A DNA stretch of 64,000 nt from the IMG/VR virus record IMGVR_UViG_3300010352_001565, positions 115,055 to 179,054 of that record. One strand, given 5' to 3'. Below are positions 34,551 through 57,961 of the stretch, in pieces. The notes under the pieces are model-generated. The model made no database searches. It was given only the letters and a program-made list of their open reading frames with translations, and had not been told where the DNA came from. The position numbers and the translations under genes are program-made. Each line of letters opens with the position of its first letter. Position 1 is the stretch's first letter. Source of the stretch: a virus.

Positions 34551-34556
34551 GCTTCC

Positions 34557-41114: not shown

Positions 41115-41996
41115 ATGCCAGATCAAAACAACACTGAACTCGTTACGACCGTCGGCGTCGAGATCGAGATGGAAAACACACGGAATGTCAACTCAGATGT
41201 CCGTTTCATCTCTGACAAGCTCTCCCGTGCCGGTCTCAACTGGGTCGTTAAAACAGACGCTTCTTGCGGCCGCTCTGGAGCGGGAGTTGAGCTAAACTCT
41301 CCCATTCTGCGCACCGACGCTGATCTCAATTCTGTGTCGAGAGTCTGCGAAATGATGGATGAACTTGGTTATAAGGTGACGAAGAAATGCGGGTTGCACG
41401 TCCATATCGACGTCCGCCGTCTCACTGAGGACGAGAGAAACCGCCTTATCCGCTTCTTTGTCCAATACCAAGACTGCTTCTTTGAGCTCGCTCCTGGACG
41501 CCGCGCGGTGCACTACTGCGCGCCGCTGACGGCAGACGTGCTTGCTAAGCTGCGGCAAAACCGCGGTTGGTCTGCGTGGTCTACCCGCTATTTCTGGATG
41601 AACGGGTGCGCTTACACGGAACACGGCACTGTTGAGTTCCGCCTGATGAGTGGCAGCCTCAACCCGAATCATGTGACTGGATGGGTCAACTTCTTGCTTT
41701 ATGTCTATGACAAGGTTGTGAACCACGGAGCTTTCGGAGACGCCACATTCTTCCATCCAGATGCTTCGACTGGACGCGACTGCTTTGACAAAATGCTGCA
41801 CGTCACTGGACTTGACAACCTCGAGGTTGAAGGTCGAGCTGAAGTTGCTCGCAGCTGGGTGACCGCTCGCTGGGACGACGCTCACTCAGATGTCCAGTCA
41901 ATTCGCGCCGAACGACGCCGCCGCCTCCAAGCTGCTTGGCGCGGTGAAGCCCCGTATGTGAAAATCGTATCGCCTAACACCACAATGGCTGACTAG
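41115..41996 (+). CDS. glutamine-synthetase-fold amidoligase (Amidoligase_2/GCS2-like), paralog A
   Basis: TVGVEIEM first strand, GLHVHIDV, VEFRLMSGSLN; same three blocks in genes 43378 and 56981; ORF track start 41109 is alternative upstream codon. Confidence 0.6.
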   Translation: MPDQNNTELVTTVGVEIEMENTRNVNSDVRFISDKLSRAGLNWVVKTDASCGRSGAGVELNSPILRTDADLNSVSRVCEMMDELGYKVTKKCGLHVHIDVRRLTEDERNRLIRFFVQYQDCFFELAPGRRAVHYCAPLTADVLAKLRQNRGWSAWSTRYFWMNGCAYTEHGTVEFRLMSGSLNPNHVTGWVNFLLYVYDKVVNHGAFGDATFFHPDASTGRDCFDKMLHVTGLDNLEVEGRAEVARSWVTARWDDAHSDVQSIRAERRRRLQAAWRGEAPYVKIVSPNTTMAD

Positions 41997-41997
41997 T

Positions 41998-42186
41998 ATG
42001 GGAGACATGGGAGACACATTCAGAGAATTGAAGGACGAACGAAAGCGACTCCGTGAAGAGCACGGAGTCAGCTGTCCTCAGTGCAACGTCAAGCAGCCGA
42101 AGCGGATTCCGACTACCCTTCTGCCGGGACAGCGGTGCAAGGTTTGCGGGTACGTCGACCCGCGTCCGCGACTTCCGTGTTCTTAA
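41998..42186 (+). CDS. small zinc-ribbon protein
   Basis: CPQC..(18 aa)..CKVC. Confidence 0.35.
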   Translation: MGDMGDTFRELKDERKRLREEHGVSCPQCNVKQPKRIPTTLLPGQRCKVCGYVDPRPRLPCS

Positions 42187-42303
42187 AAGCATGGCAGACT
42201 TGAAAGAACTTTTAGAGAAGCTCGCGCAAAGCTCGCAAAGCTAATTTCGCGCCGTGACAGAGAACCCGTTTGACTGGAGCGGTATCCGCATCGCAGTTGA
42301 AGA

Positions 42304-42822
42304 TTGGTCATGCTGTCACGGCGTGTTCTTCTGCTCATGAGCAGACTCTACGCTTTGAGCAAAATAATCTCGTTCCATGACTTGCGCACCTGGAGATCTC
42401 ACCAAGCCGGAAAGGTGGTCGCGACCAATGGAGTCTTCGACATACTTCACGCCGGTCACTGCTCATATCTTCAGCAGGCAAAAGAGCTCGGAGACCGCCT
42501 TGTCGTAGGAATCAACAGCGACTTCGCCGTCAAGTCCCTTAAAGGACCGGCACGCCCAGTAAACTCCCAAGACCACCGCGCCCAGGTACTTGCAGCTCTC
42601 GAGTGCGTTGACGCAGTTTGCATTTTCGACAGCACAAACGCTTCCCTATTTCTTATGCTTGCCGACCCGACCATCTGGGTGAAGGGAAGCGACTACAATA
42701 TCGACAAGGTGAATAAAGAAGAGCGGGATGTGCTTCAGAGCCTCGGGACTGAGATCAAATTCATTCCTTTAGTGGTCGGACTTTCAACAACTTCAACCAT
42801 CGCCAAGATCAATGGACTTTAA
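42304..42822 (+). CDS. sugar-1-phosphate nucleotidyltransferase, RfaE domain II/HldE-like (ADP-heptose synthase-type)
   Basis: TNGVFDILHAGHCSYLQQAKELGDRLVVGINSD..VKSLKG..RPVN..R..VLAALE.VD.V..F...KG.DY parallels RfaE-II FTNGCFDILHAGHVSYL..A..LGDRLIVAVNSD.S.KRLKG..RPVN; HxGH motif. Confidence 0.7.
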   Translation: MVMLSRRVLLLMSRLYALSKIISFHDLRTWRSHQAGKVVATNGVFDILHAGHCSYLQQAKELGDRLVVGINSDFAVKSLKGPARPVNSQDHRAQVLAALECVDAVCIFDSTNASLFLMLADPTIWVKGSDYNIDKVNKEERDVLQSLGTEIKFIPLVVGLSTTSTIAKINGL

Positions 42823-43381
42823 GAAGGATCCGAAGTGCGCCCCGATCGAAATGCGCCGAGATGTGGAGCACCTGGTTGAGATGATCTACACCAACCTGAA
42901 GCAGCCGTATGCATCAATCTGGATCTCCCAGGTGACCCTCCTGGCTCCTCGGTGCAACACAACTAAGCTGTGCAAGGCCATGACATTCTGGATCCTTAAC
43001 GAGCTTACTGGGATGGTCGATTCAATTCGCGCTAGACGCCTAAAAAGGACGATTGCGTTTTACTACAAAATCCATACATCCGAGGCGGCGCACTGCAAGG
43101 CGCTTGTTCATCGGAAAACAAAGAAAGCGGCTCTCCGGTCCAGGGGATACGCCCAGAAGTTCGCCGTTCAGGCCATGGCGTTTGCAATTAAAAACGGGTA
43201 CCGCTCATCAGCCCAGGCTCTTAGGGCGTGCATGCTGTCGCGAATCGCGGTCCGCTCAGGGTCTAAGAAGCACTATCAGCTCAGGCCACATCTTGCTCCT
43301 CACACAGATCCGTTCGGATGCTACACCCATGCCGCCGTAACACTTCTGGTGATGCTTAACCGCTTTGTAGTTAAGCAGTGA
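42812..43381 (+). CDS. hypothetical basic protein
   Basis: 189-aa ORF. Confidence 0.4.
   Translation: MDFKKDPKCAPIEMRRDVEHLVEMIYTNLKQPYASIWISQVTLLAPRCNTTKLCKAMTFWILNELTGMVDSIRARRLKRTIAFYYKIHTSEAAHCKALVHRKTKKAALRSRGYAQKFAVQAMAFAIKNGYRSSAQALRACMLSRIAVRSGSKKHYQLRPHLAPHTDPFGCYTHAAVTLLVMLNRFVVKQ
43368..43380 (+). promoter_or_regulatory. late-type motif TAGTTA-N4-GTG
   Basis: tgTAGTTAagcaGTG. Confidence 0.45.
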
Positions 43382-44373
43382 ACGCCAGACGCGAAATTTG
43401 CAATCTGTTTGAGGACGCTGATCTCAATCTTGGCAGCGTTGGAATTGAGATCGAGATGCTTGCCAGGAAGGACTTGGTTGCAAACCGAGAGCTTGAAGCA
43501 GTTGTCCGCCAGCTCGATTTCACGTACGGGTTCGACGATTCTGTCACTCCAATGGCAGGAAGCCTTGAGGAGCTTTACACAAACGTTGAAATCTCAATCG
43601 GTCCTGATAGGTGGGACTGGATCTCCAAGCGGTTGATGAAGATGCTGGCGTACCTCAAGCACGAGGACTACGTCGCGGTTTCTCGAAAGCACTCAAACAG
43701 CCCTGTCTCAATTTCAACTGAAACGGATCTCTACTCTGATGGCGCAAAGAAAATCAGGCTCGCAAGAGCAAGGGTCCCTCAAAATTTCTCCGCCGGAGTT
43801 CACATCCACTTCGACGCCAACAGCTGGTTTTCAGGAACAGAGCACGCAGCTCGGTTTGTCAAGGTGCTAAATCGCTGGATTGAAGATGTTCCGAGACACC
43901 TGCCAGTTCAGCGTTACGGAAACGACGGCGAGCGAGGCCACGAGTTCGCCAGGATCCAAGGTTATCACGAATTGAACGGGGACAACTGGGGATCAGGATA
44001 CATCAAGCCAGCGGAGTATTTCCACAGAATAGGAAAGAATGTTGACAGGTTCATGGCGCTCAACGTTAAACCAGCTCTGAAACGCGGCGACATTGAGTTC
44101 AGATTCATGCACGGAACTCTCAACTACGCAACAATCGCGGGTTGGTTTGAAACCCTGGCAGAGCTTATGACATACGCGCAGCGCGAGCATGGAGGGTTTT
44201 CGGACTTCGTAGCTTGGTCTGCAAAGAAAGCTCCTGAGACCAAGAAGTTCATCGAGAAATCGTACAAGCTGAGCAAGGCGTCAAAAGAGCCGATCAGAAT
44301 TTCCCCATCAAGAGCCGCTAAAAAGATCCTCAATCCGCGGGCGGCTGACGCGCCTGTGTCAAACCCGGCATAA
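43378..44373 (+). CDS. GS-fold amidoligase, paralog B
   Basis: SVGIEIEM, GVHIHFDAN, IEFRFMHGTLN. Confidence 0.6.
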   Translation: MNARREICNLFEDADLNLGSVGIEIEMLARKDLVANRELEAVVRQLDFTYGFDDSVTPMAGSLEELYTNVEISIGPDRWDWISKRLMKMLAYLKHEDYVAVSRKHSNSPVSISTETDLYSDGAKKIRLARARVPQNFSAGVHIHFDANSWFSGTEHAARFVKVLNRWIEDVPRHLPVQRYGNDGERGHEFARIQGYHELNGDNWGSGYIKPAEYFHRIGKNVDRFMALNVKPALKRGDIEFRFMHGTLNYATIAGWFETLAELMTYAQREHGGFSDFVAWSAKKAPETKKFIEKSYKLSKASKEPIRISPSRAAKKILNPRAADAPVSNPA

Positions 44374-44375
44374 GG

Positions 44376-44404
44376 TTTACAAACTTAAGCAAGCGTGCTA
44401 TGTT
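44376..44404 (+). promoter_or_regulatory. sigma70-like promoter P13 (TTTACA-N17-TATGTT)
   Basis: ggTTTACAaacttaagcaagcgtgcTATGTTagacaaagccATG. Confidence 0.35.
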
Positions 44405-44414
44405 AGACAAAGCC

Positions 44415-44660
44415 ATGGTACTGTTTTTCATACTTCTGCTGGTTTGGACATTTGCGATCGTAATGGCCGCGGCCCTGCTGTGGCTTATTTTTGCCGGACT
44501 TAAACCAGCGCTGAAAGGAATGGCAAACTACTCCGGATTGATTTGGCTAGCTATTGTCATCTCTCTTATCACGCTTTTTGTGGCGCATGACGACCGTGTC
44601 ACCGGATGGGTATTCGTCGTGATGATAGCCATCAGCCTTATTGCTTCGCATCGCAAGTAG
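44415..44660 (+). CDS. small membrane protein (3 hydrophobic segments)
   Basis: MVLFFILLLVWTFAIVMAAALLWLIFAG..; second in-frame ATG of ORF 44400..44660. Confidence 0.35.
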   Translation: MVLFFILLLVWTFAIVMAAALLWLIFAGLKPALKGMANYSGLIWLAIVISLITLFVAHDDRVTGWVFVVMIAISLIASHRK

Positions 44661-44941
44661 TTCTTTTTGACATGCAAGTGTGGGAACTCAGACAGATCCT
44701 TGAAGGACTTGACGGAAACACCGAAATTGTGGCGGGGCAGAAGGGCAGAATCGGCGGCGTTCACCTCTTTGTAGACTGGCAGATTGAACCAGGACGCCGC
44801 GTTGTCTCAGTTGTTCCAGACCAGCCGATGTCTGGTCTGCTTGGAAGGCAGCAAGCGCAAATAACCGCCATGATTGATAAAAAGAAAGCTGATGACGCAG
44901 CTCGCGCGCAAAACACTATCCTCCCTGGCGAGGAGGAATAA
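44606..44941 (+). CDS. hypothetical protein (start uncertain, possibly ATG 44672)
   Basis: ORF 44606..44941. Confidence 0.3.
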   Translation: MGIRRDDSHQPYCFASQVVLFDMQVWELRQILEGLDGNTEIVAGQKGRIGGVHLFVDWQIEPGRRVVSVVPDQPMSGLLGRQQAQITAMIDKKKADDAARAQNTILPGEEE

Positions 44942-45766
44942 CTAGATCACGTGGGGCTCAATCTTTCCAAGAGCTCCGGCCAGCTGTGTAAACGACGACC
45001 CTCTCGTTCCGATAATTTCCTCACACGCTCCTAGGGAGTAGAGATCACACAGCGCTTCAAACATCCCTTCTTTCGACGAGCGATCAACTCCGTTTTCTCC
45101 CCACGCCAGCTTGTTCTGAACCGTTACTCTGCTTCCGTATCTCCTGACAAAGTCTCGAGTCACATCCATGCTGTCTGTCGAGAGAAAGATTGGACGGCCG
45201 GCACAGGCATGATCGATCCTGCAGAAAAATGGCGTTGGCTTGTTTTCATGCCAGTTGACCGACCGCGCGTGGACCCCGACTGACCCGGGTTTCACTCGCG
45301 CGACGCTTGAGTCGATCAGCTTTTGAAGCGCGTCTGTCGGGACAAGCTTGCGAATCCGACTATGGATTTCTCCCATGGCCGTCCCATAGTCGTCGCCGCT
45401 AAACCTCGGGCTTCCCCACGAGCGGATCAGCACGATCGTCTCCCGGTCACGAACGTCTATCGGCTGCTCTGGGTTGTACACCTTCAGAGAGTGCGCAGTA
45501 TCGAGCATCCAGTAGAAGTCCCACTCGCTTATAAGGTGAACGTCCATCTTAAACAAATCGTTGAAGTTGCACCCCACACCGTCGCTTCCGTTTACCGGCC
45601 AATAGAGTGCCAAGTTTCGGCGTGTAACCTCGGCGATCCTCTGGCATCCTGCGAGAGTAAAGATTCTGTTGGATAGACCCGCGCTGCAAGTTGCATACAA
45701 GATCTCGTTTAATCCACTCGGATTCGTGTAGAAAGGCCACACCGCTTTTTCTTTGTAGTGATGCAT
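44942..45766 (-). CDS. GT11/GT23-like (fucosyltransferase-type) glycosyltransferase
   Basis: Minus-strand ORF trimmed to internal ATG (MHHYKEK..); N-terminal CSAGLSNRIFTLAGCQRIA resembles G-x-G-N-x-(L/M)F motif I; C-terminal GTRGSSFTQLAGALG resembles motif III (S-T-F-S..A). Confidence 0.5.
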   Translation of the reverse strand: MHHYKEKAVWPFYTNPSGLNEILYATCSAGLSNRIFTLAGCQRIAEVTRRNLALYWPVNGSDGVGCNFNDLFKMDVHLISEWDFYWMLDTAHSLKVYNPEQPIDVRDRETIVLIRSWGSPRFSGDDYGTAMGEIHSRIRKLVPTDALQKLIDSSVARVKPGSVGVHARSVNWHENKPTPFFCRIDHACAGRPIFLSTDSMDVTRDFVRRYGSRVTVQNKLAWGENGVDRSSKEGMFEALCDLYSLGACEEIIGTRGSSFTQLAGALGKIEPHVI

Positions 45767-45812
45767 CAGAGTATGAGAACGTGTACGTATATAGACTGCA
45801 CCGGAAAGATTT

Positions 45813-46121
45813 ATGAGCGAGAAGATGCGAGAGTTGTTGACCGAGGGCGGGCTGGTTAAGACCCCGTTGGTCGCGGTTTCAGGATGGTTCACCCGGAAGT
45901 GCATAATGCTTTCGGACTGGATGACTTGGGACCACTTTAAAATGTACGCAGAACGCTTTATTCTTATCGCCACTGCAGTCACAGTTGGGATTCATCTGCT
46001 AAACGCTCTCATAAAGCAATACTGGTGCAAGGCGAGACTTTCCGGGAAAAAAGGCGATTGCAAGTTGTGCAAGCTGTACGGCCGCTCTCTGTGCCCCAAA
46101 GGGATAAAAGACGAGGATTAA
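45813..46121 (+). CDS. small membrane protein, Cys-rich C-terminus
   Basis: FILIATAVTVGIHLLNALI TM; CKLCKLYGRSLCP. Confidence 0.35.
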   Translation: MSEKMRELLTEGGLVKTPLVAVSGWFTRKCIMLSDWMTWDHFKMYAERFILIATAVTVGIHLLNALIKQYWCKARLSGKKGDCKLCKLYGRSLCPKGIKDED

Positions 46122-46140
46122 AAATTCTCGCAAAAAAGTG

Positions 46141-46168
46141 TTTACATTTTTCCGTGGCGTGATATAGT
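46141..46168 (+). promoter_or_regulatory. sigma70-like promoter P8 (TTTACA-N16-TGaTATAGT), ATG 8 nt downstream
   Basis: caaaaaagtgTTTACAtttttccgtggcgTGaTATAGTgctctcatATG. Confidence 0.6.
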
Positions 46169-46176
46169 GCTCTCAT

Positions 46177-47310
46177 ATGAGTAACGTATCACCGCAGCAA
46201 GTCGCCTCTGTAATGAGGCTCACGGACAACCAGCTCAAAGCCGAATATTGGATCGGCAATAAGACTGGCCACTTGTTCAGGATCATCCGTATCGAAGGAA
46301 ACGGTTCCGCCCGCGAGGTCACCTACTGCGCTCCCGGCCAGCAAGAGACCTATACGAAGCCTCTTGACAAGTTCGCCAAAATCTTCCACCAAGCTGATCG
46401 CGACGAGATCTACTCTATTCTCGCTCCGCTGATTCAGCCTGTCGGTGAGGATGAAGCTGTTGGTCTGCTTATTGAACCCGACCAACGCCACGACTTCGGC
46501 CGCATCATCCTCCACGAGGAAACCCGCTTAGCCATCTCCACCGGTCTGAAGCGCATTCAAAACCGCGACGCCATGGAGCAAGTTTGGGGTCTGAGCGCCA
46601 TTGAGCCTCTCGGCAACCGCTGCATCTTGAACGGCTGGGGATTGCCCGGCACCGGCAAGACGCTCGCCTGCTACTGCATCGCTCGCATGCTTGAGAAGAA
46701 AGTCTATCAGGTCGACTACTCTGCCATCATTTCAAAGCAGCTTGGTGACACTGCCAAGCACATTGTGGCTGCGTTCGCTGCTGCCAAAAAACACGACGCC
46801 ATCTTGCTTTTCGACGAAGCAGACTCTCTTGTGTCTCGCCGCATCGAGATAGCCATGAGCACGTCGTTCGCGACCAGCATCAACCAAAACCGCAACGTGT
46901 TCATGCAGGAGCTTGACCGCTATGACGGGATCGTTTACTTGACCACCAACATGTTCGAGAACTACGACCCAGCCATGCTGCGCCGCATTGCTCGTCACAT
47001 CCCGTTCAATCTGCCCAATGCAGAAATGCGCCGGCAACTCTTTGCATGGCACCTCCCTCGCGTCGAGCGCGTCCGCATTAGCGATTGGACGAACATCTGC
47101 GCTTCGACAGAGGGCTTCTCTGGCGGCGACATCAAGAATGTTGTCATGAATTCGATCGACCGCGTCAGCATGAGCGAGGACCCGGAAACGTGGTATCTGA
47201 CTGAGGACGCTGTTCTCACTGAGGTTGGACTCATCAAGAGCTCCAAGGAACGCCACGCCCGGAACAACGGCCGCAATGACGAAGCCATCGCCGCAGCCAC
47301 CTTGAAATAA
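46177..47310 (+). CDS. AAA+ ATPase
   Basis: Walker A GLPGTGKT, Walker B ILLFDEADSL, sensor-1 TTN, arginine finger region MLRRI. Confidence 0.7.
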   Translation: MSNVSPQQVASVMRLTDNQLKAEYWIGNKTGHLFRIIRIEGNGSAREVTYCAPGQQETYTKPLDKFAKIFHQADRDEIYSILAPLIQPVGEDEAVGLLIEPDQRHDFGRIILHEETRLAISTGLKRIQNRDAMEQVWGLSAIEPLGNRCILNGWGLPGTGKTLACYCIARMLEKKVYQVDYSAIISKQLGDTAKHIVAAFAAAKKHDAILLFDEADSLVSRRIEIAMSTSFATSINQNRNVFMQELDRYDGIVYLTTNMFENYDPAMLRRIARHIPFNLPNAEMRRQLFAWHLPRVERVRISDWTNICASTEGFSGGDIKNVVMNSIDRVSMSEDPETWYLTEDAVLTEVGLIKSSKERHARNNGRNDEAIAAATLK

Positions 47311-47645
47311 TGCGAGTCGTCCAAACAGTTTCTCACTACGACGGTCGCGTCAGAAAGCGCGACAAGTGGACCTGGGCCGTCCGTCTCGACGGAACGGCCC
47401 AGGAGCTTAAAACCGTCCAGTATGTGGTCTATGAGCTGCACGAGTCCTACCGCGACCCGATTCAGATCGTGGACGACCCGCGGAACAACTTTAGGCTCTT
47501 CGGGGCATCCTACGGCTCATTTACGATTGGAGTTGAGATCTACTTCAAGCACGGGACTCCCGGCATGTCTGGGAAGAAACTGAAAGCGAAGATAAAGCTC
47601 CGCCTGTTTTACCCGACGGGGCTTTATCACCGAATTGAAGACTAG
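47310..47645 (+). CDS. hypothetical protein
   Basis: 111-aa ORF, ATGA overlap. Confidence 0.4.
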   Translation: MRVVQTVSHYDGRVRKRDKWTWAVRLDGTAQELKTVQYVVYELHESYRDPIQIVDDPRNNFRLFGASYGSFTIGVEIYFKHGTPGMSGKKLKAKIKLRLFYPTGLYHRIED

Positions 47646-48526
47646 TCCGCCATGATGGCCTGGACTTTAACCTTTCCAGTCGAGGCCTCTGATTCTCCGT
47701 AGTAGAAACGGAGCCACACCGCGCCGGTCGGTTTAGGAGGACCGCCGCGCTCGATGTGCCAGCCTTCAGAACCATCCGCAAACTCATCCTTGTAACCCGG
47801 CGTCTTAATGTGAAGCTGGGTGTCTTTGTAAATCACGCCAGAGTTGCTCAACCTCAACCTCTCGATCGGGAAGATCCATTCGTTGTGGGTGTGGCCTGTG
47901 CACACAATGTCGGCGTCAGGCAGGTACACCGACATGCGGTTTGTTTGGATCGTTCCTTTGGTAACCGGAGCGTCGCCTCCGTAGCCATGGTGGTAGTACA
48001 GTCGCTTGCTGAGCCGCTGCGTGCCGTGCACGGTAAACATGAACCGCATCCATCCAGAGAATCCTCCGATATAGATCGGGTTGTCGACAGGACGCATTGT
48101 GTTTAGGATCTGAACGAACCTCTCTGTCAGGTTTGTCTGATGATGCTTGAGAATGCTTCCCTCGTGGTTTCCTGGGGCAACAAGAGCAAAATTCTTAGCG
48201 TACGGTTTGTAAAAATCGGCGTTGTAGTTGACGAGCCTGTCGAGGTAGTTCGCTCCTCGAAGCTCGGGACGCATTTGACTTTCGTCAGCGCGCTTATCCC
48301 ATTTTCCTTGCATCGCACAGAAAAGATCCCCGTACTTCACGATCAGCGCGTCGCGCTTAAGCGCCTCATCGAGATGTTTCTTTTCAAGAGCATGATCGCA
48401 ATGAATGTTGTCGTGGTGTTCGTCAGATGAAAGTAAGACCCACTGTTCCCATCCCAATTTAACGTCATCGATGTACACTGACAATACATTCCGGGACTCC
48501 GACCTTAGCTGAATGGAGTTTTTCAT
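47642..48526 (-). CDS. calcineurin-like metallophosphoesterase
   Basis: SSDEHHDN, APGNHEG and GHTHNEWIF blocks (GDxHG / GNHE / GHxH metallophosphatase motifs); convergent with gene 47310. Confidence 0.65.
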   Translation of the reverse strand: MKNSIQLRSESRNVLSVYIDDVKLGWEQWVLLSSDEHHDNIHCDHALEKKHLDEALKRDALIVKYGDLFCAMQGKWDKRADESQMRPELRGANYLDRLVNYNADFYKPYAKNFALVAPGNHEGSILKHHQTNLTERFVQILNTMRPVDNPIYIGGFSGWMRFMFTVHGTQRLSKRLYYHHGYGGDAPVTKGTIQTNRMSVYLPDADIVCTGHTHNEWIFPIERLRLSNSGVIYKDTQLHIKTPGYKDEFADGSEGWHIERGGPPKPTGAVWLRFYYGESEASTGKVKVQAIMAD

Positions 48527-48593
48527 TAGGCGTTACGGTTCGTATTAACTACGCGTCTTTTTCTATTCGCTGAAAATAAACGAATTAAGGGGG

Positions 48594-48622
48594 TTTACAA
48601 GGTTTTGTTAACGTGCTACAGT
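48594..48622 (+). promoter_or_regulatory. sigma70-like promoter P14 (TTTACA-N17-TACAGT), uncertain
   Basis: gggTTTACAaggttttgttaacgtgcTACAGTATG; ATG abuts -10; divergent from minus-strand gene 47642..48526. Confidence 0.3.
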
Positions 48623-48946: not shown

Positions 48947-48956
48947 GTGTGGGGTG

Positions 48957-49590: not shown

Positions 49591-51444
49591 AGCTCAGCCA
49601 AAGCACTGCTCGAAGGCCTTGTACAGGAGTCGGTAACGTACCGACTTCCAGCGTCTAAAAACGTCCTGTTTTACGATTTCTACGCCCTCGCCTATCTTCA
49701 GAGCCTTCAACTCGATCCTGAAGCGAAAGGTTCAGACTCTTTCAAAGGAGCTTCTCAAACGTCGTTCACTACCAGAGACTCTGTTTCGCGCGATGTTGAA
49801 CACGCTGCTGGGGTGCTAATTCCGTACCTTAGAAAAGAGCTTAGTAACGCCACCTTCTTGAGCATCTGCGCCGAGATCCGGCACCTGTTTGACAACCATC
49901 AAAGTCCAGAGTTCTGGCAGACGATGACGAATCACCGCCTGTTCAGGTTGTACGCGAGGAAGCAGGCGGAGGCTGTTAGTAGCATATCAAACCTTCCAGG
50001 AGTCAACCGTCCAGTTAGGACACCTCCCGTTTCAGGAACTCAGCCAGGATACGACAAGGCCATGAAAGCGGCCATCTGGGCCATCAAGAAAGGTGGCTCC
50101 ACGATGGGCGAGTTTGTCAGGCTGGCTAGGTATGCGTTCCAGCGCGGTCACTGGAGCTCGTCATACGGCGGTAAGGCGTGGGCTAACATCTGCGATGGAT
50201 GGGAGATGCTCAACTCGGACAAGTCAAACGACCTCAAGTCTGCCGCTGTCGCGATAGACCACGTGTTCGACATGCAGCACAACACGGGCACGGTGCTCAA
50301 CAAAGTCCAGGAGTATGCAATCAACGGCGGCTATGGCTGGCTTTCAGGAGCGTTGAACTACAAGGCAAGCGTTAAATCGATACATGCGCTCCTTGACAGG
50401 TGCTCGAGTGACATGCGCAAACTTTCTAAGGTGGCGTTGAAATCAGCTGGAATACCTGATGAGCACGAGCCTCCTCCGAAGACTCTCAAGCTTGCTGGGT
50501 ATAACGCACAGCCTCCTGACCCTCCGTTGCACGGCAAAGTTGGAGTGGTAGACTCCGCAGGAAACTTCCAGACCACCGCCATAAACCTTACCGGAAGATT
50601 CAAATTCCCGGAAGGAGCGATCGGAAACATTGACGCTCCCGCATGCACGGTTATCAGCGGACCTATAACGTTCCCTGAAAAGTGCAAGAGGCTTTACTTT
50701 CCGAATCTCGTAGCAGCGTCGTTTGACATCGTGTTTCCTCACGAGTGCGAGACCATCAGCATGCCGCGCATTCAACATCCTCACTTTAAAAATCTCCCAT
50801 TTAAGTGCCAAGACTTAAATTTTCTTGGCGCTCTAAGCTTACCGTCGGGATTCGCATTTCCAAAAGTGTGCGGCGACGTCTATCTGAAAAGCTTGAAGCA
50901 CTTTCCGATGAATGTGGTATGGCCAGAAAAGTGCGGCTCTTTTCATCTTGACAGCATGAAAAGCGAAGAGCTTTTGAAGTTCGAAAACCTTCCACAAGCA
51001 CACTTTCTATGCCAGGACAAAATGGTGAACGGGATAGCTCAGGTGGCGCCTAAAGGAGACGAGCCCAAAACTGAAAAGACGCCTCACTGGGTTAAGGAGT
51101 TCGGACCTGAGTACGCTGTTCCTATTGAGCTATACAACAACTCTGATTTTGTGGATGGCTCGTGGCACAACGATGCATGCCCTAGTTTTTACTACCACCT
51201 GAGCGAAGACCTTATAATTTACTGCGAGCACCCTGATCCAGACAAGCGCGAAGATACCTGCAGCGCAAGGTTCACGGCGTGCAGTACCAACGAGTTCTCA
51301 GGCTTTGTTACTTTCTACGAAGGGGACGACGTGCGACGCGCCATGGAAGCGATCAAGAAGGCGTACAAAGAAGGACCACCGAAACAGCAGGAACCGCCAA
51401 GCCAAGAGCCTCCGGCTGGACCCAACCTAAACATCAAAATCTAG
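49588..51444 (+). CDS. 618-aa paralog of gene 13669 N-terminal module, with C-terminal Cys-containing leucine-rich-type repeats
   Basis: N-terminal ~450 aa collinear with 13669 (many identical blocks); C-terminus has repeated F(P)xxC..L..(I/V)..P units (BspA-type LRR-like). Confidence 0.6.
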   Translation: MSSAKALLEGLVQESVTYRLPASKNVLFYDFYALAYLQSLQLDPEAKGSDSFKGASQTSFTTRDSVSRDVEHAAGVLIPYLRKELSNATFLSICAEIRHLFDNHQSPEFWQTMTNHRLFRLYARKQAEAVSSISNLPGVNRPVRTPPVSGTQPGYDKAMKAAIWAIKKGGSTMGEFVRLARYAFQRGHWSSSYGGKAWANICDGWEMLNSDKSNDLKSAAVAIDHVFDMQHNTGTVLNKVQEYAINGGYGWLSGALNYKASVKSIHALLDRCSSDMRKLSKVALKSAGIPDEHEPPPKTLKLAGYNAQPPDPPLHGKVGVVDSAGNFQTTAINLTGRFKFPEGAIGNIDAPACTVISGPITFPEKCKRLYFPNLVAASFDIVFPHECETISMPRIQHPHFKNLPFKCQDLNFLGALSLPSGFAFPKVCGDVYLKSLKHFPMNVVWPEKCGSFHLDSMKSEELLKFENLPQAHFLCQDKMVNGIAQVAPKGDEPKTEKTPHWVKEFGPEYAVPIELYNNSDFVDGSWHNDACPSFYYHLSEDLIIYCEHPDPDKREDTCSARFTACSTNEFSGFVTFYEGDDVRRAMEAIKKAYKEGPPKQQEPPSQEPPAGPNLNIKI

Positions 51445-51508
51445 CCAAAAATGGCCAAAACCGGCTAAGTTGTTCATTTCGAACATACCTTTTGTCAACC
51501 CGGGCATG

Positions 51509-51537
51509 TTTACATTATTTTGGATTCGTGCTATTAT
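51509..51537 (+). promoter_or_regulatory. sigma70-like promoter P16 (TTTACA-N18-TATTAT)
   Basis: catgTTTACAttattttggattcgtgcTATTATtacgagtATG. Confidence 0.4.
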
Positions 51538-51544
51538 TACGAGT

Positions 51545-51751
51545 ATGAGCACGATCAAAAAGACTCAAAGAAGTTCGGGTGGAACATCAGTACTCTCTTT
51601 CAGAATCCCTGACGACCAGCGCACAACTCTTAACCAGCTGGCCGCAACAAGTCTAATCGTCGGGGTTCATTCTGGAGAGCAGCTCGCCCGGCAGATTGTG
51701 ACTGACTTCATTGCTGGAAAAATACGCTATCCGCAAACTCAGCAAGCGTAA
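51545..51751 (+). CDS. small putative ribbon-helix-helix DNA-binding protein
   Basis: 68 aa; SFRIPDDQRTTLNQLA (beta-strand + helix typical of RHH/CopG/MobC-type N-termini). Confidence 0.4.
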   Translation: MSTIKKTQRSSGGTSVLSFRIPDDQRTTLNQLAATSLIVGVHSGEQLARQIVTDFIAGKIRYPQTQQA

Positions 51752-51779
51752 ACGTTTTGAAGCTCAGAACCAAAAAGTG

Positions 51780-51808
51780 TTTACATTTTAGCGTTAATGT
51801 GGTAGTAT
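51780..51808 (+). promoter_or_regulatory. sigma70-like promoter P9 (TTTACA-N17-TAGTAT), ATG 6 nt downstream
   Basis: caaaaagtgTTTACAttttagcgttaatgtggTAGTATtaccgcATG. Confidence 0.5.
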
Positions 51809-51814
51809 TACCGC

Positions 51815-52255
51815 ATGACGTTAAAACAAACTATATTGGTCACTGCTGTATCCATCACTTTACTTAGTTCGATGGACTCAACTGCAAAATCACAAGAAAT
51901 CGTAGCGGCTGTCCTGATCGCTGAAGCTGGGGGAGAAGGAGTTCAGGGAATGGAAGCCGTCTACGAGATCATCAACAACAGGTCCGTTCGTGGAAAGAAA
52001 TCGTACGAAGACGTAGTCACGCAGCCCGCACAGTTCTCGTGCTTGAACGGAGTCACCACCGACGATCTGATCGCAAAGTCAAAGCAGCATCCTCGCTGGG
52101 AACAAGCGCTTCAGATGGTCAAGTCGCCTCCGACTACTCGATATGCGAATGGGGCGACTCACTATTACGCGAACTGGATCAAGAAGACTCCGAAGTGGGC
52201 AGTGGGAAAAACCCCCGTTGCTACACTTGGAAAGCACCTCTTCTTCAGGATCTAG
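51815..52255 (+). CDS. SleB-like cell-wall hydrolase (Hydrolase_2 family) with N-terminal signal/anchor; endolysin candidate
   Basis: Signal-like N-terminus; AEAGGEGVQGMEAVYEIINNR .. QPAQFS .. THYY blocks typical of SleB/CwlJ cell wall hydrolase domain. Confidence 0.6.
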   Translation: MTLKQTILVTAVSITLLSSMDSTAKSQEIVAAVLIAEAGGEGVQGMEAVYEIINNRSVRGKKSYEDVVTQPAQFSCLNGVTTDDLIAKSKQHPRWEQALQMVKSPPTTRYANGATHYYANWIKKTPKWAVGKTPVATLGKHLFFRI

Positions 52256-52267
52256 TTCTTAGGTCGC

Positions 52268-52771
52268 ATGAACACAAAGTGGTCGACGTTCGTGCGACTA
52301 GATCTTCAAGACAGAGACCTCAAAGGTCTTGGTGCAGCTGGGATCATTTCCCAGAAAGCAGATGAAACATGGGTCAACTCCACCTACATGGTGACCCTAA
52401 CCCGAGACGTTCCTGTTGGTCAAGGCTGGACATCCAAGATGATCCGGCTCACCATCAAGCGTCGCGACAAGAAACCCATCCATGACTGGCGCGACATGCA
52501 GCGCATCAAAAACGAGCTTGTCGGTGCTGAGCACGAAGCCATGGAAATGTTCCCTGCCGAGGAGCGCCTGGTAGACACTTCAAACGTCTTCTTCCTGTTT
52601 GTGTTCGCTGACCCAAAGGTTCGCTGGCCGTTCGGCTTCGCGACCAGGTGGGTCAACAACGTTTCGGAGAATGGAAGTGTCCAACGCCCATTCCCTCTCG
52701 ACGACATGCCAAAGGATTGCATGACCGCCGCGCAATATCAGGAATTCCGTGCAACGCAAAAGGAACAATGA
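52268..52771 (+). CDS. hypothetical protein
   Basis: 167-aa ORF, ATGA overlap with thyA. Confidence 0.45.
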
Positions 52772-53697
52772 AGCAATACCATGACCTCCTTCGCTTGATT
52801 CTCAACGAAGGAAAAATAACAACCGACCGCACTGGCACAGGCACGCAGTCTGTGTTTGGTGCTCAAGCCCGCTTTCCTCTGAAAGATGGCTTCCCACTTC
52901 TCACCACCAAGAAGCTTTACACGAAAGCTATCATCCACGAGCTTCTTTGGTTTATACGCGGGGTCGCAAAGCCAGGCGACCCGATGATGCTCAACTACCT
53001 GAAAGATAACGGCGTCACCATCTGGGATGAGTGGGCAGATGAAAACGGAAGCCTTGGCCGCGTCTACGGCGCCCAATGGCGAGATTGGATCGGCGTTGAT
53101 CCTAACACTGGAAGCGTGACGCATACCGACCAGCTCGATGCTTTGATCAAGCGCCTGATCAGTAAGCCAGACGACCGCCGCCTCATCGTCACTGCCTGGC
53201 AGCCTTCTGAGGTCCACTGCATGGGGCTCCCCTCGTGCCACTGCTTCTTCCAGCTGAAAGCGTATCCGCTGACGCTTGAAGAGCGGATCGCCGAATTCCA
53301 TCGCCGAAATCCTTCTGTCGACGCGTTTATCAGCAATGACTCTGACCTCGAGCGCTACGACATTCCGAAGCACAGTCTCGATCTTCAGCTATACCAGCGC
53401 AGCTGCGACACTTTCCTTGGCGTGCCATTCAACATTGCATCATACGCGCTGCTGACCATGATGATTGCCCAGGTCGCCAATATGATGCCCGGAACTTTCA
53501 TTCACACCTATGGTGACCTTCACCTGTATCTCAATCACATCGAACAGGCTAAGCTGCAGCTCACCCGCGATTGCCGCCCGCTTCCGAAGATGGTTATCAA
53601 CCCGAATGTCAAAGACATTAACCAGTTCACCTACGAGGACTTCAAACTCGAAGGATATGATCCCCACCCAACCATCAAAGGCGAAGTCTCTGTATAG
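52768..53697 (+). CDS. thyA: thymidylate synthase (canonical ThyA type)
   Basis: [16 protein letters not shown], catalytic LPSCHCFFQ (Cys), [21 protein letters not shown]; ORF 52648 trimmed to MKQYHDL with AAGGAA SD-like 4 nt upstream. Confidence 0.8.
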
Positions 53698-53700
53698 CAT

Positions 53701-54057
53701 ATGTTTCGCGAAAAAATACTAGCCGTAGTTCGCGTTGAGTTTGCTGAACCCGTCACTGTAAACCTGACGGCTGCAAGCTCGCACGAGCCGGATCTTGTCA
53801 CTATCAATTTCGGATCTGCTTCCGAATTTCCGCTGAACCGCCTTGAGAATCTCAAGAAAGGATCGATTGTCACGATTTACACTCGTCTTCCAAAGAGCCG
53901 CGTGTTGTGGCCCTGGTCTTTTCGCGTGAACCGCCAAGGCCAATCGATGGCATCGCGCCATAAACCGGCAGGATGGCAAGTAGCATTTTCTCCATCCGTA
54001 GGAGATCCTGTCACAATTGAGATTGTGAGCATGGACATAACCGCATCAACTGTATAA
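53701..54057 (+). CDS. hypothetical protein
   Basis: 118-aa ORF. Confidence 0.4.
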   Translation: MFREKILAVVRVEFAEPVTVNLTAASSHEPDLVTINFGSASEFPLNRLENLKKGSIVTIYTRLPKSRVLWPWSFRVNRQGQSMASRHKPAGWQVAFSPSVGDPVTIEIVSMDITASTV

Positions 54058-54075
54058 GTAGTTCTTTAGTACTTT

Positions 54076-54891
54076 ATGTCAAAACAATTCTTCGCGCTAA
54101 ACGACGGGTCAAACCCTCTTGCTTGTAACCTAACAGAGTTGAACGCCGCTGAGTCGGTCGATAATGGCTTCATGAGCCACAACGACTGGATCGCCCACGT
54201 TAACCGTTATGCTTACACCGGCAAGGTCATCCAGAAATCAAAACCTGGCACGATCCTTGACGTGGGATGCGGAAAGCTCCAGCTTCCGTACTACCTGTGG
54301 CGCAACCGCCTACATCTGGAAGAAAACGGGTCCTACTGGGGTATCGAACTCCGCGCCAAGCAGGCGTGGCTTGAACCGATCAACTGGAAGACCAGCATGA
54401 ATCTCATCAAGGCTGACATCATTCTTGACGAGATCAACGAAGACAACATTGAATTCTGGCCTGGCCAGTTCGACCTTGTCACCTGCTTCGAGACGTGGGA
54501 GCACGTTCCGCGCGACAAAGCCATCATTCTGGCCGAGCGCTTGTTCAACTGGACGAAGCCAGGAGGAATCCTGTTGTTCAGCTCTCCGAATGCCGGAGTG
54601 TCCGATTCAACGGCTGACAACCACACGGACGCAGAAGGCGAAAGCCGCGAGTGGGAGATGGAGTCGAAGATTGAAGTTCTCGAAGACGCTGGATTCAGCC
54701 TGCACGAGAACTTTGGAACGTTTTGCGGCATCACTCGCCTTCCTGAGGAGTTCCAGGAGCGCCTGCGCACCGACGCCTTGCTGATCCAGGCGAAGAAGTT
54801 CCTGAACCACGCAAACTTCACGGCGCTTGTGGCCGCGGCATACCCGCAGTTCAGTAACAACAGCCTGATGCACTTTGTGCGCAGAGCGTAA
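54076..54891 (+). CDS. class I SAM-dependent methyltransferase
   Basis: Motif I ILDVGCGKLQ, downstream DLVTCFETWEHV (motif II/III), Rossmann-MTase length. Confidence 0.6.
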   Translation: MSKQFFALNDGSNPLACNLTELNAAESVDNGFMSHNDWIAHVNRYAYTGKVIQKSKPGTILDVGCGKLQLPYYLWRNRLHLEENGSYWGIELRAKQAWLEPINWKTSMNLIKADIILDEINEDNIEFWPGQFDLVTCFETWEHVPRDKAIILAERLFNWTKPGGILLFSSPNAGVSDSTADNHTDAEGESREWEMESKIEVLEDAGFSLHENFGTFCGITRLPEEFQERLRTDALLIQAKKFLNHANFTALVAAAYPQFSNNSLMHFVRRA

Positions 54892-55091
54892 TGTTTAAAG
54901 TTCAGTTCATAGACTCAGTCCCACGGTGGGCGAACGACGCCCGGTATTTTGCGCGAGGTCCTAGCGGTCCTTATAGCCAGCGCGAGATTCACCGGGTGTT
55001 TCGCCGCCGTGGGTTTTTTCCGATTGGTAGAGAAGTGTTCGACAGCGAGTCGAGCACAAAAAGGTTGGTAGCAAAGCTAGTCCCAGCGTAA
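54891..55091 (+). CDS. hypothetical small protein
   Basis: 66-aa ORF. Confidence 0.25.
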   Translation: MFKVQFIDSVPRWANDARYFARGPSGPYSQREIHRVFRRRGFFPIGREVFDSESSTKRLVAKLVPA

Positions 55092-55093
55092 TC

Positions 55094-56107
55094 GTGAAAG
55101 CAAAGTTGTTTTTGGTAGATGGAGCAGACGGAACCGGAAAATCTACCCTTGCAGAGGAGATCCGGAGACAGACAGATGGAGTCATCCTTCACCAGAGTTA
55201 CCGCTGGCGCGACATGATGTTTGTCTACCACACAGCCGCCCTCCACTTCGCCGAAAAGTTCATCGCTAAAGGAAAGACGGTCATCCTCGACCGCCACTGG
55301 CCGTCAGAGATGGTATATGGTAAAGTGTTCAGGAACGGATCCCGTTGGCCTCTTGAAGGACGCATGATGGACCGAGTCATACTCAAGATGGCAGGAACGT
55401 ATATCTTCACCCTTGGAGATCCAGAGGCCATCGCCAAGCGCCATGCCCAGCTTCAGTGCGTCCGAAGGGAAGAGTATTCGCACTCGATTTCTCAAGTAGC
55501 CACAGAATACAACAACCTATTTTATGGGTTTCCGCACAAAGTTGCCAAAGACCACGCCGAATTTATTGCAAGCACCGGAGGCTTCATACACAGGAAAGAT
55601 GCGTTCGCTTATCGTATGGAGATCGAAGGACAGGATGTCTGCGGTTTTGTTGAAGCTCTGATAAACAAGGCTGGAAAATACACCGCAGTGCAGTATCAGC
55701 CAGCTCTTCAGTCCCGATTTCGAAATGTGCTAGGCCACATCGAGTCTGCTCGCTTTCTAATCGTCGGTGACGAGGCAAACCCGAAGATGAACCACATCTT
55801 TTGGCCGTTTCATGACTACGGTCACTCTAGCTTGTTTTTGGCCCGCACCTTGCACAACATCAACTTCCGCGAAGAAGATGCGATGTGGACCAACGTGAAT
55901 CACTCTGACCATGCTGACGCGCACATTCGCGCAATACTAGAGATGAAACCACTCCGCGTGGTAGCTCTCGGCAAGAATGCTGAAGCTGGATTGAAGAAGA
56001 TTGGGGTCAACGACTTTGTGACTGTCAGGCACCCGCAAGCGGCAATGCGATTTTCGTCGCTTTCGGATGTGTCTTACAAGGACGAATTGAGCCGAGCATT
56101 GTTCTAA
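55094..56107 (+). CDS. fusion of P-loop (d)NMP-kinase-like domain and UDG-superfamily-fold domain (5-hmdU DNA kinase / aGPT-Pplase-like candidate)
   Basis: GTG start; N-terminal LVDGADGTGKST (Tmk-like P-loop) and ILDRHW lid region; C-terminal VGDEANPK..WPF.D.G..SLFLARTL (cf. UDG family-4 motif A GEAPG..E...G.PF.G..G.LL) and RHPQAAMR (cf. motif B HPSPL). Confidence 0.55.
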   Translation: MKAKLFLVDGADGTGKSTLAEEIRRQTDGVILHQSYRWRDMMFVYHTAALHFAEKFIAKGKTVILDRHWPSEMVYGKVFRNGSRWPLEGRMMDRVILKMAGTYIFTLGDPEAIAKRHAQLQCVRREEYSHSISQVATEYNNLFYGFPHKVAKDHAEFIASTGGFIHRKDAFAYRMEIEGQDVCGFVEALINKAGKYTAVQYQPALQSRFRNVLGHIESARFLIVGDEANPKMNHIFWPFHDYGHSSLFLARTLHNINFREEDAMWTNVNHSDHADAHIRAILEMKPLRVVALGKNAEAGLKKIGVNDFVTVRHPQAAMRFSSLSDVSYKDELSRALF

Positions 56108-56112
56108 TAGGA

Positions 56113-56928
56113 GTGCAAAAATTTAGAACCCCGAGCGAGGCTTATTTGGCTGTCCTCGCCGACGTTGTAGACAACCCAGAATACCGCGTTTCTCCACGCG
56201 GGCAGCCGATAGCCGAGAAGACAGACTACTCGTTTGAGGTAGCTCTCCCAGATGCAAGCCCGATCGTCACCCGTTCAGAGTCCCGCAACAAAACCATTGC
56301 CGACTACACCCACAAGGAGTTTGAGGTTTACGAGAGCGGATCTCGCAGAGTTGAGGATTTCGCGAAGATCAGCAGCTTCTGGAAATCACTCGCAAATCCA
56401 GATGGAACGATCAACTCGTCTTACGGACACTTGATCTTCAAAAACCAGTCGTGCGGAAATCCAACGTACGAAGTTCAGCGCAAGTTTCTGAACGAGCACG
56501 ACGGCAATGGCGGATCGGAAGGAGTGAACCTCAGCGAGCTTGAGCGAACACCATGGGAGTGGGCTTCCGAGTCTCTCATCCAGGACAAAGATACCCGCCA
56601 AGCCATCATGCACTTTAACCTTCCTGAACACTGTTGGGTCGGCAACCGTGACGTCACATGCACGATGCATGGAATCTTCCAGATACGCCAGGACAAACTC
56701 AACCTCTCAGTGGTCATGCGGTCAAATGACGTCGTTCTTGGTCTCGTATTCGATCTACCATGGTTCATGCACCTGATCGACAGGATGGTCGCAGCGCTGA
56801 AGCCAACGTATCCTGCCCTCACAAAAGGCCACTACCGCCACATGGCGCACTCAATGCACGTCTACGGACGCGACATGGAAAAGGTGAATATGATGCTCGG
56901 CAGGGGTATGCTCAGCGGCGCTCAGTAA
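56113..56928 (+). CDS. divergent thymidylate-synthase-family paralog (pyrimidine hydroxymethylase candidate)
   Basis: GTG start; DVTCTMHGIFQ aligns to ThyA PCHAFFQ (Cys retained); VVMRSNDVVLGLVFDLPWFMHL aligns to [23 protein letters not shown]; far more divergent than thyA at 52768. Confidence 0.55.
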   Translation: MQKFRTPSEAYLAVLADVVDNPEYRVSPRGQPIAEKTDYSFEVALPDASPIVTRSESRNKTIADYTHKEFEVYESGSRRVEDFAKISSFWKSLANPDGTINSSYGHLIFKNQSCGNPTYEVQRKFLNEHDGNGGSEGVNLSELERTPWEWASESLIQDKDTRQAIMHFNLPEHCWVGNRDVTCTMHGIFQIRQDKLNLSVVMRSNDVVLGLVFDLPWFMHLIDRMVAALKPTYPALTKGHYRHMAHSMHVYGRDMEKVNMMLGRGMLSGAQ

Positions 56929-56946
56929 AATAGTTGCAAATAAATG

Positions 56947-56974
56947 TTTACAATTTTCCGTATCGTGATATAGT
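56947..56974 (+). promoter_or_regulatory. sigma70-like promoter P10 (TTTACA-N16-TGaTATAGT), ATG 6 nt downstream
   Basis: taaaatagttgcaaataaatgTTTACAattttccgtatcgTGaTATAGTtctgatATG. Confidence 0.6.
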
Positions 56975-56980
56975 TCTGAT

Positions 56981-57961
56981 ATGAACGCTGTACTACCAGT
57001 CACGGTCGGTTTTGAGCTTGAGTTTGGCTCGCCGAACCAGCAGATACTTTCTGTGATTGCCGACGCCATGGCGAGGAACAACTACCCCGTCACCAACTTC
57101 GGCCGCTGGCGCCACACTCCTGCCAACCCATCAACGTGGGATCTCAAAACCGATTCGAGCTGCGGATACCGCGAAGGCGTGGGCGGGTTTGAAGTTGTGA
57201 GCCCCGTGATTCGCACGTACGACGAGCTCGTGCACGCCGTCAAGGTTGCCAACATCGTCACCCGTTGTGGCGGAAGTGCGAATCGCCGCTGCGGTCTGCA
57301 CGTCCACATCGGGTTTCGCCAGTTCAACACTCCCGAAATTCGGGAGCGCCTGTTTCGATTTCTGTCTCGCTACGAGGAGGCATTCTACATGCTCGTTCCA
57401 GAAACCCGCCGCAACAACCCCTACTGCAAACCGATGAACGTGCGAATCATCGAGTCGGTTAAAGCGAAGCATGGGCGCGTTGACGTGGGAATGGCATGGC
57501 AAGACAAGAACACCTGGATCAACTTCGCGACTCTGAACCGCATCGGCACCGTAGAGTTTCGCTTCATGGAAGGAACTCTCGACCCAAATCTCATCCTCAA
57601 CTATGTGATGTTCCTCGTCCATGTTATGGACACGATTATCGCTGGGAAGCGGGTGTCCTGGGGTCGCGCCAGCGCCAAGAGCAACCGCATGCTGTTTTTC
57701 ACCATGCTGCAGCAGCTCAATCTCTACGGAAAGAAATCCAAGTCGCAAGACGAAGACCGCGCCAAGACAGTTCGAAAATGGACGGTCAAGAGGTTTGCCG
57801 CGTTCAACCCAAATCCAAATCAGCCTCGGCAAGAGCTGACGGGTCGCGCAGAAGACCGTCCTGCTTTGACTGAAGCAGACATTGCGAACCGCGCACAGGC
57901 TGAGGCCGTCCCAACACCAGCGCCCGCCAACCCGGGTCAACCTAATGGAGGTGTGCAATGA
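56981..57961 (+). CDS. GS-fold amidoligase, paralog C
   Basis: TVGFELEF, GLHVHIGFR, VEFRFMEGTLD. Confidence 0.6.
   Translation: MNAVLPVTVGFELEFGSPNQQILSVIADAMARNNYPVTNFGRWRHTPANPSTWDLKTDSSCGYREGVGGFEVVSPVIRTYDELVHAVKVANIVTRCGGSANRRCGLHVHIGFRQFNTPEIRERLFRFLSRYEEAFYMLVPETRRNNPYCKPMNVRIIESVKAKHGRVDVGMAWQDKNTWINFATLNRIGTVEFRFMEGTLDPNLILNYVMFLVHVMDTIIAGKRVSWGRASAKSNRMLFFTMLQQLNLYGKKSKSQDEDRAKTVRKWTVKRFAAFNPNPNQPRQELTGRAEDRPALTEADIANRAQAEAVPTPAPANPGQPNGGVQ

Follow-up and report, generated by a model that had tools for sequence, protein, structure and literature searches.

Carboxylate-amine ligases of the Amidoligase_2 type use ATP to form an acyl-phosphate, which is then attacked by an amine. The family (PF12224), whose members reportedly were predicted by Iyer and colleagues in 2009 as glutamine synthetase (GS)-like amidoligases of phages and plasmids, is widespread in phages, and its presence in DNA-hypermodification clusters has been noted before but never explained. 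The subject of this report is a 64,000 nt stretch of viral DNA (the window; positions 115,055 to 179,054 of IMG/VR record IMGVR_UViG_3300010352_001565), in which three such enzymes are encoded on the + strand, namely amidoligase A (41115..41996), amidoligase B (43378..44373) and amidoligase C (56981..57961). The source is an uncultured myovirus-like phage of roughly 220 kb. Proteins of the window are also on record from contigs of up to 222,710 bp, an ENA contig spans the window from position 31115 and continues beyond its end, and a search of INPHARED found no near-identical phage, the sole match being 49 bp long. Related phage loci and contigs are referred to by L-numbers, L105 being Pseudoxanthomonas phage PW916 (OL960029.1). 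The gene cassette around the C clade and the operon around the B clade add new variants to the DNA-modification gene clusters of phages, and their context is tentatively read here as a possible, rather than a probable, sign that A, B and C make amide decorations on DNA derived from 5-hydroxymethylcytosine (5hmC) or on its sugar donors.

Thymidine-hypermodification clusters contain uncharacterised genes for amidoligases and amidotransferases, alongside a 5-hydroxymethyluracil (5hmU) DNA kinase and an aGPT-Pplase, with or without pyridoxal phosphate-dependent and radical S-adenosylmethionine enzymes (Lee et al. 2021, PMC8989533). The window shares with these clusters the logic of a hydroxymethylase combined with tailoring enzymes, but differs in carrying an Asp177 cytosine signature and a Tmk-like kinase fused to a domain resembling uracil-DNA glycosylases (UDG). 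In addition, Pfam annotation of the whole window contained no family of the aGPT-Pplase type, and no 5hmU DNA kinase was recognised, the cassette kinase having no tblastn match in phages with a known enzyme of that kind. In other phages, a cytidylyltransferase-like enzyme and a glycosyltransferase put heptose on 5hmC, and further clusters add 3-deoxy-D-manno-octulosonic acid (Kdo) or uronic acids to the same base (bioRxiv 10.1101/2023.12.21.572611). Kdo and uronic acids bear free carboxylates and would thus supply the carboxylate that an amidoligase needs. With the 5hmC glycosylation clusters (T4 gp42 with glucosyltransferases; heptose, Kdo and uronic acid types), the locus shares an enzyme of the deoxycytidine monophosphate (dCMP)-hydroxymethylase type and a candidate for its cognate kinase, and with the heptose cluster also a cytidylyltransferase-like enzyme adjoining a putative glycosyltransferase. 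However, these clusters are without an amidoligase, and the glycosyltransferase assignments in the window are weak and are treated as candidates only. With PF12224 as described elsewhere, the enzymes have in common a hidden Markov model match, a GS-like fold, the ExE, HxH and ExR motifs and a class-II amidotransferase in the same genome, whereas the phage differs in possessing five paralogues, of which C accompanies a dCMP-hydroxymethylase-type gene and B a nucleotidyltransferase of the HldE type, in place of the AIG2 or amidotransferase neighbours typical of the family.

Open reading frames (ORFs) for all three enzymes are present, and the three sequence blocks that the initial annotation considered them to share can be read directly from the translations: GVEIE, GLHVH and VEFRLMSGSL in A, GIEIE, GVHIH and IEFRFMHGTL in B, and GFELE, GLHVH and VEFRFMEGTL in C. 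Against PF12224, for which the gathering score is 22 bits, A (293 aa) and C (326 aa) score 68.2 and 75.6 bits, and B (331 aa), which belongs to a divergent clade, scores a marginal 23.7 bits, so that the Pfam profile places all three in the GS-like amidoligase family as proposed. PHROG amidoligase families and NCBIfam matches are in agreement with this. A and C are clear paralogues (30% identity over 289 aa, E 1e-38), with B far more divergent (E 3e-6 against A and 2.5e-4 against C). An alignment of 28 sequences covering clades A to D shows no variation at G10, E12, E14, W53, G105, H107, N181, E192 and R194 (C numbering) and almost none at H109 and R143. Structure models of B and C show the glutamine-synthetase/YbdK/PafA fold, the closest fold neighbours being the gamma-glutamyl ligases YbdK, GCL and GS. 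In a profile comparison with the PDB, the three blocks line up with GIELE, GQHVHVG and GTVEVRVM of YbdK (E=1, which is not significant alone), and a phmmer search of the PDB with the C sequence gave no matches. Sequence similarity to YbdK/GCS2, GCL and GS is negligible, the ligases here are about 300 aa long and lack the GS N-terminal domain, and glutamate is not indicated as a substrate for A, B or C. PADLOC contained no defence-system family matching any of the amidoligases, and a GTDB genome scan for C relatives returned none, hence no bacterial or prophage example. The fold is related and the conserved Glu, His and Arg residues of the metal and ATP site are retained, and the family assignment therefore stands: it is near certain that A, B and C are genuine Amidoligase_2 enzymes, and they are active-looking GS-fold carboxylate-amine ligases, with activity predicted from their sequences.

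The genes directly upstream of C carry most weight for a role in DNA modification. The first gene of the C cassette (55094..56107, + strand) encodes a fusion of a P-loop domain resembling Tmk and other deoxynucleoside monophosphate kinases with a C-terminal domain like those of the UDG superfamily. The kinase half matches Thymidylate_kin, AAA_33 and TIGR00041, and in a profile search of the PDB it alone was matched (by YorR of SPbeta), the UDG half finding no match; the UDG-like label is based on a Pfam match below threshold and on conserved motifs of the GD/E...HPQ type (VGD..WPF..WTN..HPQ..RF). The same fusion was found between MazG and a pyrimidine hydroxymethylase in PW916 (L105, 2319-3299), where it is unannotated. 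The second gene (56113..56928, + strand) encodes a thymidylate-synthase homologue with a dCMP-hydroxymethylase signature, the best phage matches of which are dCMP hydroxymethylases of the T4 type. In comparison with T4 gp42 and the ThyA of the phage itself (E. coli ThyA numbering), the homologue keeps the catalytic Cys and D169 and carries L143D and N177D. The N177D exchange indicates dCMP as the substrate, L143D/E indicates a hydroxymethyl rather than a methyl product, and retention of D169 separates such enzymes from 5-hydroxy-dCMP synthases (PMC13326640, PMC8670742). All cassette hydroxymethylase homologues have Asp at position 177, Asn being found only in canonical ThyA. PW916 was considered as a deoxyuridine monophosphate-specific control for the rule on residue 177, but its 'deoxyuridylate hydroxymethyltransferase' also has Asp, and the control is not a clean one.

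The phage also encodes a canonical ThyA (52768-53697; 339 bits, Asn177 and Leu143) and a DHFR (5932-6447), and its relatives keep ThyX, so that thymine is probably not replaced. These residues and genes predict 5hmC, rather than 5hmU, as the modified base. The initial annotation had named hydroxymethyluracil DNA as a candidate substrate of the ligases, and this is not supported, given the Asp at N177, the dCMP-hydroxymethylase signature and the presence of ThyA and DHFR. Its more general suggestion that the ligases act on a nucleic-acid base is plausible for C, in view of the conserved hydroxymethylase cassette, but no such context exists for A or B.

The trio of kinase/UDG-like fusion, hydroxymethylase homologue and C is found in the window, L003, L014, L020/21, L022, L023/24 and L107, and in L001 a kinase-like gene lies 4 kb from the remainder of the C cassette. 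Across these lineages, which number at least seven, the trio occurs in two orientations and with unrelated surrounding genes. Moreover, among some 80 viral amidoligase loci, a thymidylate-synthase-like neighbour was limited to the C clade. Adjacency to a family of folate-dependent enzymes also allows a different explanation, in which C glutamylates or otherwise amidates the folate cofactor of the hydroxymethylase. A DHFR is encoded in the same genome and gamma-glutamyl ligases are the closest folds, and phage-associated folyl-polyglutamates are found in T4. Nevertheless, known folylpolyglutamate synthases have a Mur-ligase fold and not a GS fold, nothing ties C specifically to folate, and the UDG-like domain kept in the cassette points to nucleic acid; this explanation is regarded as highly improbable.

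Additional genes accompany the cassette or lie near it. Orthologues of a class I S-adenosylmethionine-dependent methyltransferase of the Methyltransf_23 family (54076..54891, + strand) occur in L003, L014 and L107, and PW916 has a weaker relative; co-conservation of the methyltransferase with the hydroxymethylase cassette may point to methylation within that pathway. Downstream of C, a 195-aa nucleotidyltransferase of the ligase/capping type (58931-59518; motif KLNGDR, DNA_ligase_A_M at a sub-threshold 22 bits) has its own 23-mer promoter (described below) and is kept near the C cassette in L001, L014, L020-24 and L107. A 515-aa protein encoded 2 kb downstream of C (60203-61750) matches DUF5672 at 68 bits and Glyco_transf_90 at 47 bits and is a candidate glycosyltransferase. 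A 787-aa gene that runs from 61767 to the window end and is often seen beside amidoligases was considered as a partner and rejected, as it encodes a baseplate wedge protein and its adjacency reflects synteny only.

The B operon points to sugar chemistry. Its first gene (42382..42822, + strand) encodes a CTP_transf_like protein (Pfam 60.6 bits) resembling the sugar-1-phosphate adenylyltransferase of HldE domain II, which scores 164.9 bits against TIGR02199 (rfaE_dom_II), the cutoff of which is 181.5. This is followed by a gene for a 189-aa protein (42812..43381, + strand) that overlaps both the transferase gene and B, has an orthologue of 45% identity in L104 and showed no family match. On the opposite strand, 44942..45982 encodes a NodZ-like putative glycosyltransferase (NodZ E 0.011, sub-threshold), orthologues of which adjoin B in L104 (54%) and L008 (38%). 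The nucleotidyltransferase and the NodZ-like gene flank the B orthologues of L104 (56% identity) and L008 (34%), and the B context as a whole was drawn from three individual contigs. The B clade is small: a search of 1.84 billion proteins at E<=1e-30 gave about 27 representative clusters. For B relatives, an IMG/VR scan yielded 0 loci and a metagenome scan one short locus.

The initial annotation also offered two carrier proteins as possible substrates. The GcvH-like lipoyl-domain protein (35069-35446; 55.5 bits) is real and keeps its modifiable lysine (..GETSKATFS..), but nothing ties this protein to the ligases, and the ACP-like segment at 9548 did not hold up: it belongs to a protein that begins with a P-loop, and its PP-binding match of 15 bits (E 0.026) falls short of the 20.8-bit cutoff. 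The GcvH-like gene is preceded by a weak dual-specificity-phosphatase-like gene, the pair occupying 34398-35446. These carriers bear on the idea that one or more of the ligases tag proteins in the manner of PafA, by joining a carboxylate (from an amino acid, the C-terminus of a small protein or a cofactor) to lysines of phage or host proteins, or by loading the GcvH-like carrier. Support for tagging comes from the GcvH-like lysine and from a small conserved protein of 115 aa (57958..58305, + strand), the start of which overlaps the C stop, coupling the two translationally. However, the GcvH-like gene lies 6 kb from A, and in none of the loci examined was it conserved close to an amidoligase. 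The 115-aa protein follows C in L003 and L014 only and is absent from most C lineages; it showed no family match and ends in ...DEFP, and therefore does not have the C-terminal Glu/Gln of a Pup-type tag. In addition, the fold does not discriminate, the scores of PafA and Dop being no higher than those of GS and GCL, and unlike the PafA/Dop system the locus has no Pup-like partner or proteasome context. With the ACP-like match below threshold as well, protein tagging is considered improbable.

The source contig carries five Amidoligase_2 genes (A to E) rather than three, D and E lying past the window end. The module formed by D, E and an amidotransferase is located just outside the window, at approximately 64359-68000 in window coordinates (L012 17379-20959; L013 8854-12456). 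D (331 aa), about 360 bp past the window end, is a fusion of a WGR domain (24.2 bits) with Amidoligase_2 (76.1 bits), the WGR domain suggesting, on sequence grounds, nucleic-acid binding. E (472 aa; Amidoligase_2, 38.8 bits) lies about 1.7 kb past the window end, with a gene for a 124-aa protein between D and E, and is followed by a GATase_6 class-II glutamine amidotransferase of the N-terminal nucleophile (Ntn) type, which has an N-terminal Cys (protein start MCAIIG). This amidotransferase adjoins D and E and not A, B or C. L007 and L019 carry the module as well, with counterparts of D and E in L007. In a relative from run SRR26268931, A, D, E and the amidotransferase apparently share a contig, with the C cassette on a second one. 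A itself has no conserved neighbour in the window, and its orthologues in L007 and L019 adjoin the module of WGR-amidoligase, E and amidotransferase; a 62-aa ORF resembling a Cys4 zinc ribbon (41998..42186, + strand; CPQC...CKVC), for which no family match was found, directly follows A.

Each of the five copies is nearer to orthologues in other phage contigs (identity 36-48% for A, 34-56% for B and 37-66% for C) than to its own paralogues. The phylogeny of the copies, run as a rough neighbour-joining tree, placed A and C as sister clades, with B, D and E branching more deeply, each as a clade of its own. The initial annotation had described a triplication within one phage, with three successive or alternative ligation steps. 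No recent triplication is apparent among five old, separate clades that each have orthologues elsewhere, and the idea of serial steps gives way to paralogues occupying distinct conserved contexts. From these comparisons of sequence and gene order, the five copies are ancient paralogues in three differing conserved gene contexts.

The transcription signals likewise differ between the copies. A and C share a sigma70-like promoter of 45 bp, consisting of the 23-mer ATAGTTGCAAATAAATGTTTACA, a spacer of 16 nt (N16) and TGATATAGT, at 41062..41106 for A and 56930..56974 for C (both + strand), with the ATG 8 and 6 nt past the -10 element, respectively. Six copies of the 23-mer were found in the window with up to three mismatches (4025, 21735, 24964, 41062, 56930 and 58880; four are exact), compared with none in 100 shuffles. 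Looser copies of the form TTTACA-N16/17-TGnTAnnnT number about 14, often with the upstream 23-mer ATAGTTGCAAATAAATG, and include those at 18232, 28276, 39835, 44376, 46141, 48594, 51509 and 51780. In promoters of this type the start codon lies 6-9 nt past the end of the -10 hexamer, from which it follows that the early mRNAs would be leaderless or nearly so. Just 5' of the A promoter, the upstream unit is ended by a terminator-like hairpin read from the sequence (41021..41053, + strand), formed by AGGCGTGC, a 12-nt loop, GCACGCCT and TTTTT, with weaker overlapping matches in a terminator scan. The initial annotation had given each copy a promoter or late motif of its own. A promoter of its own is correct for A and C, with their identical 23-mer element, but B has no such promoter, and its GTG start overlaps the TGA of the 189-aa gene (GTGA). 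Motif scans found no P-type promoter between A and B, and the only terminator-like match between them is a weak one within the transferase ORF (42309-42325), so that B may be read from the A promoter and share its transcript.

The late motif proposed upstream of B is real as a positional motif. TAGTTAA lies at 43368..43374 on the + strand, 10 nt 5' of the B GTG, and recurs on that strand at 13659, 20750, 39278 and 40258, and once on the - strand. All five + strand copies stand exactly 10 nt before a start codon, a geometry with a background of 10/505 TAA sites. The fuller form is RTAGTTAA-N3-RTGAA, often at GTGA stop/start overlaps, and the core RTAGT resembles the -10 hexamer TATAGT with the same 6-nt spacing to the start codon. 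On this resemblance, the motif may act as a late promoter that lacks a -35 element and yields leaderless mRNA or, equally, as a signal for translational coupling.

In the proposed pathway of amide decoration, the phage would make 5-hydroxymethyl-dCMP (5hm-dCMP) and incorporate 5hmC, and C would tailor the 5hmC, either as the nucleotide or in DNA, or a group attached to the base. B, taken to be co-transcribed and translationally coupled with the HldE-type nucleotidyltransferase, would modify a nucleotide-activated sugar (or sugar acid), or the glycan once transferred, with an amide, an amino acid or a group derived from ammonia. A, as a presumably early and separately transcribed sister paralogue of C, would contribute additional amide-forming steps together with D, E and the amidotransferase. 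The chemistry would involve an ATP-dependent acyl-phosphate and attack by an amine or by glutamine-derived ammonia. The paralogues would then serve different modules, not three steps on one substrate, and the end product would be an amide-decorated, 5hmC-based DNA hypermodification. A more specific version is a cytosine hypermodification of a new kind, in which the cassette is assisted by the remaining amidoligases, by the amidotransferase and by the HldE-type/NodZ-like module and a group such as an amino acid or carboxamide is amide-linked to 5hmC or its sugar acid. This version is doubtful; if true, it would be the first case of an amide-tailored cytosine in DNA and would give PF12224 its first biochemical function.

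Several observations weigh against amide decoration of DNA. By itself, 5hmC has neither a carboxylate nor a good amine, and an extra step, for example one that adds a sugar-acid or amino-acid adduct, would be needed. For PF12224, the searchable literature contained no member with an experimentally established activity. Within the C cassette, the UDG match scores 19 bits, below its threshold of 24.3, and the kinase P-loop, which the window has in common with L003, L014 and L107, is degenerate in L001, L020 and L022, where the C-terminal domain is kept. The B module is kept in three of the four B lineages and is missing in L102/L103, and the NodZ assignment falls below threshold. The relatives also have the baseplate wedge gene and the overall architecture in common, and the adjacency of the cassette genes may partly be inherited synteny.

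Other points against a role in DNA also favour a further explanation, namely that the ligases, with an Ntn amidotransferase or thiol-peptidase, build or remodel, during infection, a peptide-like or gamma-glutamyl metabolite or a cell-wall precursor unrelated to DNA. Candidates are conjugates of the muropeptide, glutathione-like or polyamine type, and the nearness to nucleotide genes would be inherited gene order. The commonest neighbours of phage Amidoligase_2 genes are AIG2/GGCT-like (33 loci) and class-II Ntn amidotransferase (16 loci) genes, and D, E and GATase_6 form just such a module, both here and in L007 and L019. A similar gene set in LUZ24-like phages has been called a putative peptidoglycan-modification module, the neighbour pattern being taken to indicate peptide, gamma-glutamyl or cell-wall chemistry and not DNA chemistry (PMC11945000), and the nearest folds, YbdK, GCL and GS, are gamma-glutamyl ligases. 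Nevertheless, this explanation does not account for the C clade alone retaining an adjoining hydroxymethylase homologue despite inversions and insertions, nor for the coupling of B to a sugar-phosphate nucleotidyltransferase. Moreover, a hidden Markov model built from the 33 loci detected no GGCT/AIG2-like partner in either the window or close relatives. A metabolite or cell-wall product is considered only slightly less likely than amide decoration of DNA, and the probability that is left over falls to none of the four readings, these being DNA amide decoration, metabolite or cell-wall synthesis, protein tagging and folate modification.

Elsewhere in the window, an AAA+ ATPase gene (IetA/TRIP13-like in PADLOC) is directly followed by a gene for a pYEATS-domain protein (46177-47645), and the pair is also present in L014. 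A patatin-like phospholipase is encoded at 3093-3968 and an HD_4 domain gene lies at 23920-24486, and L001, a relative, encodes a PhuZ-like tubulin and a class II ribonucleotide reductase, in keeping with a jumbo-phage lineage.

Within a widespread phage enzyme family, the C clade is consistently paired with a dCMP-hydroxymethylase-type enzyme and the B clade is coupled to a sugar-phosphate nucleotidyltransferase, which offers candidate substrates to follow, namely 5hm-dCMP, 5hmC-containing DNA and nucleoside diphosphate-sugar acids, with amino acids or ammonia. If the link to DNA modification is false, the region would be an ordinary case of a known, uncharacterised phage enzyme family. If it is true, phage DNA chemistry would be widened to amide-decorated cytosines, with consequences for resistance to restriction and CRISPR systems and for enzymatic DNA labelling tools.

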